Source of the DNA: Octopus vulgaris
Lineage: Eukaryota
Assembly: GCA_951406725.2 (NCBI GenBank)
Contig: OX597826.1
Span: forward strand, 26,722,001-26,786,000
Direction of reading: 5' to 3'
Length of the DNA stretch: 64,000 bases
The position numbers were made by a program, and so were the translations under genes. The number at the start of each line of letters is the position of its first letter. Position 1 is the first letter of the stretch. The notes beneath the pieces were generated by a model. That model was not told the origin of the DNA and did not search any database. It saw only the letters and a program-made list of their open reading frames with translations. This document shows positions 20,512-23,673 of the stretch, piece after piece.

Positions 20512-21200
20512 AAAGGCTTCCAAATAAGGAAGCGTAGTGCTAGAACACAAAAAGGGATAAATTCCTGAAAGGAATGAAAATTAAAAACATTTACCATCTC
20601 AGCTGTATCCCAGACCGAACGGTTTCTACCTATTTTTAGCAAACACACAGAATATATTTGCCAGGCCAGGTTCTTCAGAGGAAAGCCTTCGTAATCCTAG
20701 ACACACAGACTGTTAGAAGCACATGTAGAAGCATTGTATATATAAAATTTTTCAAACCTCTGCGCAGACGCAAATCATACCCGGCGAACAGAGAGGATGC
20801 CGGTAAAAAATTTACGAACAAATTTATCAAGCAATATTTAAACATAATCAAATAGGGTAATAAAATAAATTACAGGTAATAATAATTTATTTTATTACCC
20901 TATTTGATTATGTTTAAATATTGCTTGATAAATTTGTTCGTAAATTTTTTACCGGCATCCTCTCTGTCGCCGGGTATGATTTGCGTCTGTGTAGAGGTTT
21001 GAAAAGTTAGGATATACAAACCGTTAGATCTACATGTGCTTCTAACAGTCTGTGCGTCTAGGATATAATTTGTTCATAGAAGGTTTGCCACTACGGTTTA
21101 TAATTCGCTCCAGTAGGTGAGCAACATCATCAGGACAGAATATACTAATCTCTCGGTAAAACTATAGATTATAAAGAGAAAAGAAAATTTACTCTGATAA
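20510..21200 (-). mobile_element. PLE-type terminal fragment with hammerhead motif and inverted repeat
   Basis: 20510-20690 is homologous to 33885-34055; inverted repeat 20695-20872 / 20883-21063. Confidence 0.7.
20607..20685 (-). ncRNA. Type I hammerhead ribozyme motif
   Basis: UUUCCU CUGAAGA - long helix II - GAAACC GUUC GGUC UGGGA. Confidence 0.7.
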
Positions 21201-21480: not shown

Positions 21481-21603
21481 TCACACACATGTACGTATAT
21501 GTATATGTATATATCTATATGTATGTATGTATGTGTATATATATATATATACATACACAGCCATGTATATATAAATATATGTATATATATATATATATAT
21601 ATA

Positions 21604-21998
21604 CTAGCAGTATCGCCCGGCGTTGCTCGGGTTTGTAAGGGAAATAATTATATAATCATTTTTAGAGATGTAAAGTATAATAGCCATCTCAATATGGCTA
21701 ACCACAAAGGGGGAGGGGTGTTACTGTAGCTTTTTACGTTCTGAGATTTAATAATAAATTTTAGAGAGTTACTTCCCTTATATATGTCAAAAATGGATTA
21801 AAAATGGGAAGAATTGATGGTAATTTTTTTTTTTAATCGTAGACTCATCGTAGACGCGCGCTAATACCCAGACGGTCTCGATATGAATCACGACTATAAG
21901 ATACCCGGTTTTGGTTAAACTGCACCGCAAAATGTGGGAGTAGTTAGGAATCTAAATCGTAGGAGACATACACACAACCTCACTTTTATATATAAAGA
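21604..21998 (-). mobile_element. Non-autonomous Helitron
   Basis: 5' TC, 3' CTAG, subterminal hairpin CCCGAGC-AAC-GCCGGG, inserted at A|T with no TSD; second copy at 23674-24306. Confidence 0.85.
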
Positions 21999-22097
21999 TT
22001 TCCTCTATTTACATAATATTGAGGTCTCTTTCTTTCTTTTGTTATCTTACTGTTTTTACCAATATACATATATATATATATATATAAATATATATAT

Positions 22098-22421
22098 AGT
22101 TACAGAGATGTACTTGCATAGCAAGTGACTTGATCTGAGATCGTGTGCTGGAACGAAAACAGTTGCAGCGTTGAAGGTGTTTATAAGCCATTTAAGAAAC
22201 ACACAAAAACCGTTAGATTCACTTCAACATTTAAATTTAATTTGTCAAAATATTTTCATCGCTTTGAGACCGCGATCTGTTAGCACGATATTTTTGTCAG
22301 TGAACAGGTCGCGGTCTCAAAGCGACGAAAATATTTTGGCAAATTAAATTTAAATGTTGAAGTGAATGTAACGGTTTTTGTGTGTTTCTTAAATGGCTTA
22401 CAAACACCTTCCACGCTGCAA
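22098..22421. mobile_element. PLE-type fold-back element in (TA)n
   Basis: Inverted arms 22163-22281 / 22303-22421, one-sided ~65-bp extension, hammerhead-shaped motif at 22293-22343. Confidence 0.75.
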
Positions 22422-22439
22422 TATATATATACACACATA

Positions 22440-22474
<35 letters not shown>

Positions 22475-22789
22475 GTGTATATGTGTATGCATGTATGTGT
22501 GTGTGTGTGCGTGTCTGTGCTTGTGATTGTCCTCCACCACTGCTTGACAACGAATGTTGGTTTGTTTACATCCCTGTCACCTAGTGGTTTGACAAAGGAA
22601 ACAGATAGAATAAGTACAATGCTTACAAAAATAAAACGAGTTGATTCATTAAACTACAATTCTTCAAGGCATTGCCCCAGCATGGCCACAGACCAATGGC
22701 TGGAAAAAGCAGAAGAATAAAAGAATACATTCTCTGCTTTGGTCTTATGTTCAAGGCATGAGAAAGCTTGAGTTTACATGAGAAGGCCT

Positions 22790-23165
22790 AACAGACCTGG
22801 TAGAAACAGCAGCCAAATCTCCCTCAAATCACACCTTACTGTCTTATGTATGTATATATATATGAGCCAATGAGGGGGACCTCTACATGGTAGCTAGACC
22901 TGGTAGAAATAGCAGCCAAATTTCCCCCAAATCACACCTTACTGTCTTATCTATGTATATATGTATGTATGAGCCTATGAGGGAGACCCCTACATGGCAG
23001 CTAGACCTGGTAGAAATAGCAGCCAAATTTCCCCCAAATCACACCTTACTGTCTTATCTATGTATATATGTATGTATGAGCCTATGAGGGAGACCCCTAC
23101 ATGGCAGCTAGACATGGTAGAAATAGCAGCCAAATCTCCCTCAAATCACACCTTACTGTCTTATC
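22790..23165 (+). repeat. Minisatellite, ~107-bp unit x ~3.5
   Basis: ACATGG.AGCTAGAC.TGGTAGAAATAGCAGCC recurs at 22885, 22992 and 23099. Confidence 0.95.
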
Positions 23166-23399
23166 TTTCTGCTACATGGATATAGGTGTTATATTCGTCG
23201 TAAAAAACTTTCCTGTCACACACTCACGCACACGCACACACACACACACACACGCGCCCTCACACACACACACACGCGCACACCCACACACACCCACTCA
23301 CACACACGCACGTTAGCTTACAATTTTATTTATATATTTGCGTGTCTGTGTGGAAAGAGGAAGTGGGAGGCAGAGTGAAAGAATCACTCACTACAGTAA

Positions 23400-23673
23400 G
23401 TCAATTACTTTCATTTTATTCGTTGCCCACTGTGTGTGTGCGTTTGCGTGTGCTGTAAACCAGACTAAGAAAAGCATTTGACACACACACCAGAATGTGA
23501 GTTTTCTGTAAATTTTGCTTAACTGGAGTTTAAATTTTAAAAACTGGACCTGGCATGACGCGATGCATTGTACTCTTAAAAATGCAAGGTAAATTGTAAT
23601 TGAAGAAATCCTATATTGTAGATTTGTATAACTCCCAAAGGGAGGCAGATAAAATCTGCCTTTTATAATAAGA
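23400..23673 (-). mobile_element. Second Helitron-like family, 5' part
   Basis: Starts TCTTATTATAAAAGGCAGAT with hairpin AGGCAGAT..ATCTGCCT; near-identical copy at 25492-25762. Confidence 0.6.

Follow-up and report, generated by a model that had tools for sequence, protein, structure and literature searches.

The window analysed here is a 64,000-nucleotide stretch of Octopus vulgaris contig OX597826.1, from a microsatellite-rich 2.8-Gb genome. On its forward strand it contains a minimal hammerhead-like motif within a truncated copy of a Penelope-like element (PLE), carried as a passenger by a larger repeat (Table 1). The initial annotation, made from the sequence by itself, had described a hammerhead topology around a non-canonical core, GUGAACA(G). 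All of the hammerhead parts were found at the expected places on the + strand, and the core was confirmed letter for letter.

Table 1. Features of the hammerhead-like motif, the PLE copy and the carrier repeat, in window coordinates.
Feature	Position	Strand	Remarks
Minimal type I hammerhead-like motif, G3:C8 core	22293..22343	+	Helices I (7 bp) and II (5 bp), with a palindromic helix III
Helix I strands	22293-22299/22337-22343	+	
Core GUGAACA (G3 U4 G5 A6 A7 C8 A9)	22300-22306	+	
Extra G, preceding G10.1	22307	+	Core plus extra G, 22300..22307
Helix II strands	22308-22312/22322-22326	+	
GAAA (includes G12 A13 A14)	22327-22330	+	
Palindrome AAUAUU, A15.1-AUAU-U16.1	22330-22335	+	Within 22327..22336
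U17	22336	+	Predicted cut 22336/22337; numbering by analogy to PMC4209133
5'-truncated PLE copy	22282..22422	+	5' end near +7 of the inferred transcript; 3' end at the shorter of the family's boundaries
First PLE ORF codons, AUG at 22393	22393..22422	+	Homology with the N-terminal end of the 1312-codon frame in the sister family
Inverted partner copy with ~60-nt tail, truncated within the core	22100..22281	-	Long hairpin with the right arm
Young non-coding composite repeat carrying the PLE fragment as a passenger	21603..23673	+	Next unit head-to-tail from 23673

The motif was compared with the minimal hammerheads described in PMC4209133. The extra nucleotide 9/10.1, G10.1-C11.1, GAAA, A15.1-U16.1 and H17 are all present; the UUU cleavage triplet counts against an active ribozyme. 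The literal core, C3 U G A N G8 A (or its U3/A8 form), is departed from at G3 and C8, which are Watson-Crick complementary to each other (G:C; G·G in ~3% of family copies). Folding of the 51-mer formed helices I and II at -13.2 kcal/mol (z -2.1, 7 of 200 shuffles equally good), a prediction that, taken alone, is weak evidence. The question of chance was settled by recurrence, since the exact scaffold had 1,925 matches in the genome as opposed to 0 for a reversed control. An Rfam scan returned no hammerhead match even at E<=10, the gathering threshold not being reached, and no related loci were found in the viral and prokaryote collections.

AAUAUU is its own reverse complement, as a helix III shared between two molecules would be, and cofolding of two copies gave a helix-swapped dimer with an intermolecular helix III (predicted, -32.7 vs 2 x -15.4 kcal/mol). 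The full palindrome spans 10 nt and is able, by fold prediction, to mispair A14, which also counts against activity. Because this longer palindrome would also pair A13/A14, a 10-nt helix III would be unfit for the active fold; the palindromic helix III that had been proposed thus survives only as the central AAUAUU. Similarly, helix I as originally drawn (UUUGUCA/UGGCAAA) describes this copy but not the family at large, in which UGACAAA occupies most copies. UGGCAAA is a subfamily change, U-A to U·G.

Overlooked in the initial annotation was a 119-nt, 95% inverted repeat (22163-22281/22303-22421) whose right arm contains the motif. When both arms were folded together, a single hairpin of -192.8 kcal/mol was predicted in which the hammerhead helices had a probability of 0.0. 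The flanks of the motif were also common to all 30 best-matching loci, defining a shared unit (21603-23673). The window copy must therefore have been amplified together with this carrier, as its passenger. The carrier junction occurs in 635 exact copies, the carrier ends were fixed in 27 and 28 of 31 stretches, and head-to-tail tandem units are present; we take the ends to resemble those of non-autonomous Helitron/Helentron repeats. On these predictions the window copy is a truncated passenger that would not fold as a hammerhead and is likely inert, since it would be enclosed in a 119-bp hairpin that is itself part of an unrelated carrier. A double change in helix II of the left arm (AUCGC/GCGAU) was considered as covariation and rejected, as other copies have one change without the other. 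Two further repeats were observed nearby: a second long inverted repeat of unrelated sequence (20694-21064; arms of 85, 42 and 36 nt, 93-100% complementary) and, inside the carrier, a 107-nt tandem repeat (22793-23166; 3.5 copies) whose copy number varies among loci.

Other copies of the PLE family are pieces of 150-215 nt in (TA)n; many have an inverted partner, and a ~60-nt tail is present in some. Longer copies extend upstream, first across a UTR of ~1 kb that is rich in microsatellites and then into an ORF with GIY-YIG at its end, which matched PF01541 above cut-off; reverse transcriptase and C-terminal GIY-YIG lie in one ORF, as in endonuclease-positive PLEs. Long frames are retained in some copies, with 1025 stop-free codons in L118/L137 and a YVDD motif in L138. 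The linker CQSNCAVC may be compared with the CX2-5CxxC of the Neptune and Nematis clades, our tree having been built from our own loci. Sequence 3' of the motif is the start of the ORF, aligning to the N-terminus of the 1312-codon frame of a sister family. In 10 of 10 family loci examined (L091-L094 and L117-L122), the motif followed the stop of the GIY-YIG ORF by ~1 kb on the same strand. It sits just ahead of the next AUG, as in Poseidon of Anolis (PMC11167929), in the sense strand of the PLE pseudo-LTR. This architecture is that described for PLEs in PMC8557442 and PMC11167929, and the 5' truncation, inverted partners, optional tail and (TA)n targets likewise agree with PMC8557442. The motif occupies the PLE hammerhead slot, between the 3' UTR of the GIY-YIG ORF and the next AUG.

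That G3/C8 might be the family consensus, a point raised in the initial annotation, was borne out. GUGAACAG is the core consensus of the family, and close anchors recovered 5,081 exact G3:C8 copies, a count that includes carrier-borne ones. Under motif-blind sampling, with anchors placed outside the motif (3,166 matches), GUGAACAG was present in 27 of 30 fetched copies by script and, by eye, in 85 of 100 among the matches listed; canonical cores were found in none of the 30 and in 0 of these 100. Subfamilies differ in the 5' flank and in loop II, of which four versions are common; the sole subfamily difference within a helix is the U-A to U·G change in helix I. U4, G5, A6, A9, GAAA, A15.1-U16.1 and H17 showed no subfamily change in copies down to 84-89% identity. 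In contigs of four runs bearing four organism labels, neither the core nor the 5' strand of helix I had a variant at >=3% among the variants listed. One of these runs, only guessed to be RNA, showed 14 A>G places compared with 1 in each of the three others, the pattern expected from A-to-I editing of hairpin transcripts.

Close anchors additionally returned 188 copies with a purine at position 8 and 124 with a letter other than G at position 3. By eye, the first 100 listed of the former comprised 80 G3·G8 and 20 G3·A8, and mismatched G3·G8 amounts to ~150 copies, ~3% of the family, set against the 5,081 G3:C8 copies. G3C was far rarer (11 of the first 100 listed of the 124), and one canonical copy was among these 100. 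A family copy with a fully canonical CUGAAGA-G (L265; contig 18, 35457835) was observed, ~0.4 such copies being expected by chance from G3·G8 copies. The G3·G8 form is spread over several subfamilies; one inverted pair has it in both arms, and it was seen in four ORF-linked older copies. Unpaired templates were thus probably propagated, whether they mark an ancestral step or arose through repeated reversion. In a 27-row tree, G8 and C8 were interleaved among older copies under weak branches. At least 20 G3·G8 copies of shared subfamily background are clustered on contig 16 at 1.7-6.7 Mb (L251-L264), a cluster that may be the product of retrotransposition or of duplication.

To place the core among its relatives, the 3' regions of 24 related PLEs (the G3:C8 family, the sister family and 22 metagenome loci) were scanned with a descriptor left free at positions 3, 4, 7 and 8, which was written after the relatives' tails had been viewed. 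Ten motifs were recovered, against 0.21 expected from shuffles; the motif was absent from 14 of the 24 tails, several of them short. Eight of the 10 are complementary at 3:8 (three C:G, three U:A, one A:U and one G:C), where permutation gave a mean of 2.8 (p=0.0007, uncorrected for kinship). In the remaining two, L109 (A·G) and L116 (G·G), 3:8 is unpaired unless read as C3 plus an insertion. The distant tails of L103, L116 and L109 contain CUA-GUGANGA or C-A-UGAAGA, cores that may be read either as C3 with an insertion or as lacking a pair at 3:8. L106 carries a hammerhead-like core, AUGAAUA-G, with an A3:U8 pair ~385 nt after its ORF match; no report of such a pair was found in the PLE and hammerhead literature examined.

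A quick tree of 18 rows (six short rows excluded) grouped the sister family with the G3:C8 family (SH-aLRT 98). The sister family is the nearest relative found and has C3:G8, so that G3:C8 was likely derived by two transversions. No family intermediate between the G3:C8 family (81-95% amino acid identity) and its sister (~50%) was found in 50 loci examined. Within the sister family, which has many intact frames of ~1310 codons (L123-L136 and L140), the canonical CUGAUGAG is carried by a minority and CUGAUGCG, with A9C, by most copies, intact ones included. A9C in this recent intact lineage suggests relaxed constraint on the core; L097 likewise has C9. The covariation of 3:8, together with its family-wide consensus, argues against decay of a single copy. 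The earlier reading of a compensatory variant in place of decay can therefore be retained for the family, G3:C8 being fixed and the pair kept in 8 of 10 relatives, but not in full: with ~150 mismatched G3·G8 copies the case for selection on the pair is not airtight, and the window copy itself is a truncated passenger.

The 5' ends of copies were examined for traces of the transcript. A set of 87 starts reaching the region was assembled from loci that were not randomly drawn, L061-L090 being excluded as their search pattern forced the boundary. In 26 of these starts the match extends upstream as far as the A of UC-AGAUG and ends there; three of the 26 are long copies with a point change. Among the remaining 23 boundary starts, 17 were preceded by G (~22% expected; binomial ~2e-7, by hand). 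An adjacent inverted arm may be the source of some of these Gs, and after a rough filter for such cases 10 of 15 kept the G. An untemplated G is a known trace of reverse-transcribing a cap. A capped RNA start is thus inferred ~23 nt before G3, which would place the cut site at +59, the AUG at +116 and the motif in the 5' UTR. The boundary was also considered as a 3' splice site (CUAAC...UUUCUCAG) and this was rejected; a capped start is preferred because the copies end mostly 2 nt upstream of the junction and with an extra G. CUAAC...UUUCUCAG may nevertheless serve as a splice acceptor in read-through transcripts. Short copies share a single start nucleotide (L093:3905), often with an extra G, which suggests that they are full cDNAs running from an internal priming site to the capped 5' end.

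Of 30 copies anchored downstream of the cut, at most 18 start within 3 nt of the boundary. Copies starting at the cut site numbered 0 of 30 by alignment (1 by eye) and ~2 of 100 by eye among the matches listed, using a search pattern that under-samples one class of long copies. Since copies begin at the likely capped start and not at the cut site, their templates were mostly uncleaved. In the sister family, taken as a control, ~3 exact and 4 near starts at the cut site were counted by eye per 100, not clearly above background. Cut-site starts cannot separate a weak ribozyme from a dead one, because the canonical Anolis element shows none either (PMC11167929).

Comparison with known systems places the motif close to the minimal hammerheads of metazoan PLEs (Cervera and de la Pena 2014, PMC4209133). 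Shared are the pseudo-LTR position, type I topology, the 9/10.1 nucleotide, G10.1-C11.1, a short palindromic helix III needing a dimer, and thousands of truncated copies; the extra nucleotide, G10.1-C11.1 and palindromic helix III are listed in that paper as emerging without being searched for. It also reports U3:A8 and low dimer activity. In contrast to the octopus motif, its 56-row supplement alignment holds only C3:G8 and U3:A8, and the octopus helix I, at 7 bp, exceeds theirs in length. Hammerheads with a natural U3:A8 pair (Perreault et al. 2011, PMC3088659; Schistosoma Cercyon families) represent a compensatory 3:8 change of the same kind, though U3:A8 requires two transitions whereas G3:C8 requires two transversions that reverse purine and pyrimidine. 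Poseidon of Anolis carolinensis (Frangieh et al. 2024, PMC11167929) shares a hammerhead adjoining the start of the ORF, a tail that results from having two 3' boundaries, and an unprocessed RNA template; its cleavage is protein-dependent and its insertion independent of cleavage. An engineered C3G/G8C double mutant, the same swap as the octopus core, partly restored activity of that hammerhead. There the swap was engineered into a naturally canonical core, whereas here it is natural and fixed, and the octopus AUG lies 57 nt downstream of the cut. In a full pairwise scan of a type III hammerhead, no double change in the region other than the G:C swap restored activity (PMC9901934), and PMC8495972 and PMC3884650 agree on partial rescue. 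No natural G3:C8 hammerhead was found in the literature searched, although papers or supplements outside this coverage could list one; passages of PMC6765202, PMC11014351, PMC6155905 and one preprint contain nothing on G3:C8.

Three other accounts of the motif were weighed. A chance look-alike arising in a repeat, with no hammerhead ancestry, might be argued from the missing Rfam match and a folding z of only -2.1, but it is largely refuted by position and homology: the slot is identical to that of the canonical hammerheads of the sister family and L101, and the related tails held 10 matches vs 0.21 expected. We regard it as very improbable. It is also improbable, if less extremely so, that G3 and C8 arose or were kept by pairing of the core with CUGUUACU, ~35 nt upstream, and not with each other, whether as a templated mutation or as a switch that hides the core in read-through transcripts. 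The pairing accommodates both changed letters, and in a 130-nt fold extending over CUGUUACU C8 is paired at a probability of 0.87 while helix I falls to 0.11. However, the hammerhead returns in a 290-nt fold (helix I 0.87), the inferred capped start lies downstream of CUGUUACU, the covariation in relatives is left unexplained, and the pairing was noticed post hoc.

More weight is due to a catalytically dead descendant, in which C3G was followed by G8C drift once cleavage ceased to matter. Helices I-III would then be a 5' UTR structure or protein-binding site, and the restored pair either luck or of use only in stabilising the fold. The ~3% of G3·G8 copies, A9C in the sister lineage and the uncleaved templates are all in keeping with this account. 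Moreover, hammerhead mutants did not impair insertion of Anolis Poseidon in vitro (PMC11167929), and Naiad PLEs thrive without canonical hammerheads (PMC8557442). Against it stand the constancy of the other core letters across the subfamilies and a pair kept in 8 of 10 relatives through four different letter pairs. On balance, we consider a dead descendant unlikely, albeit well short of negligible.

We lean instead towards a compensated, attenuated hammerhead of the PLE family, dimer- or protein-assisted, in which 3:8 is fixed as G:C and for which cleavage is predicted. This builds on the observed position and strand of the motif in the element, its family-wide fixation and the covariation among relatives. 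By analogy, the motif would work like a PLE minimal hammerhead yet fails the literal core consensus. Putative self-cleavage would be slow, would occur when two copies pair through the AAUAUU palindrome and would probably be assisted by the element's protein. Such a weak, conditional ribozyme could occasionally cut tandem read-through RNA while sparing most capped mRNA, and might be tolerated or favoured because fast cleavage would remove the cap.

A wider reading, which we offer tentatively and consider unlikely, is that this PLE clade tunes its hammerheads down in place of losing them. All four 3:8 pairs would have been traversed because the ribozyme lies between cap and AUG, the family would constitute an active natural G3:C8 ribozyme present in an animal genome in thousands of copies, and the G3·G8 copies would record the single-mutant step over a fitness valley that has been documented to date only in laboratory work. 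The chemistry itself is no surprise, the G:C swap being already known to be partly active in vitro. Hammerhead searches fix CUGANGA (or UUGANAA), and G3:C8 and A3:U8 families are therefore invisible to them; some PLEs reported to be without hammerheads may carry such 3:8 variants. The starts of short copies map the likely PLE transcription start from genome sequence alone. Finally, selection on PLE hammerhead cleavage is left open by the cited papers, and a natural, family-fixed G3:C8 core, together with both single-change forms in one genome, provides a ready test of it.
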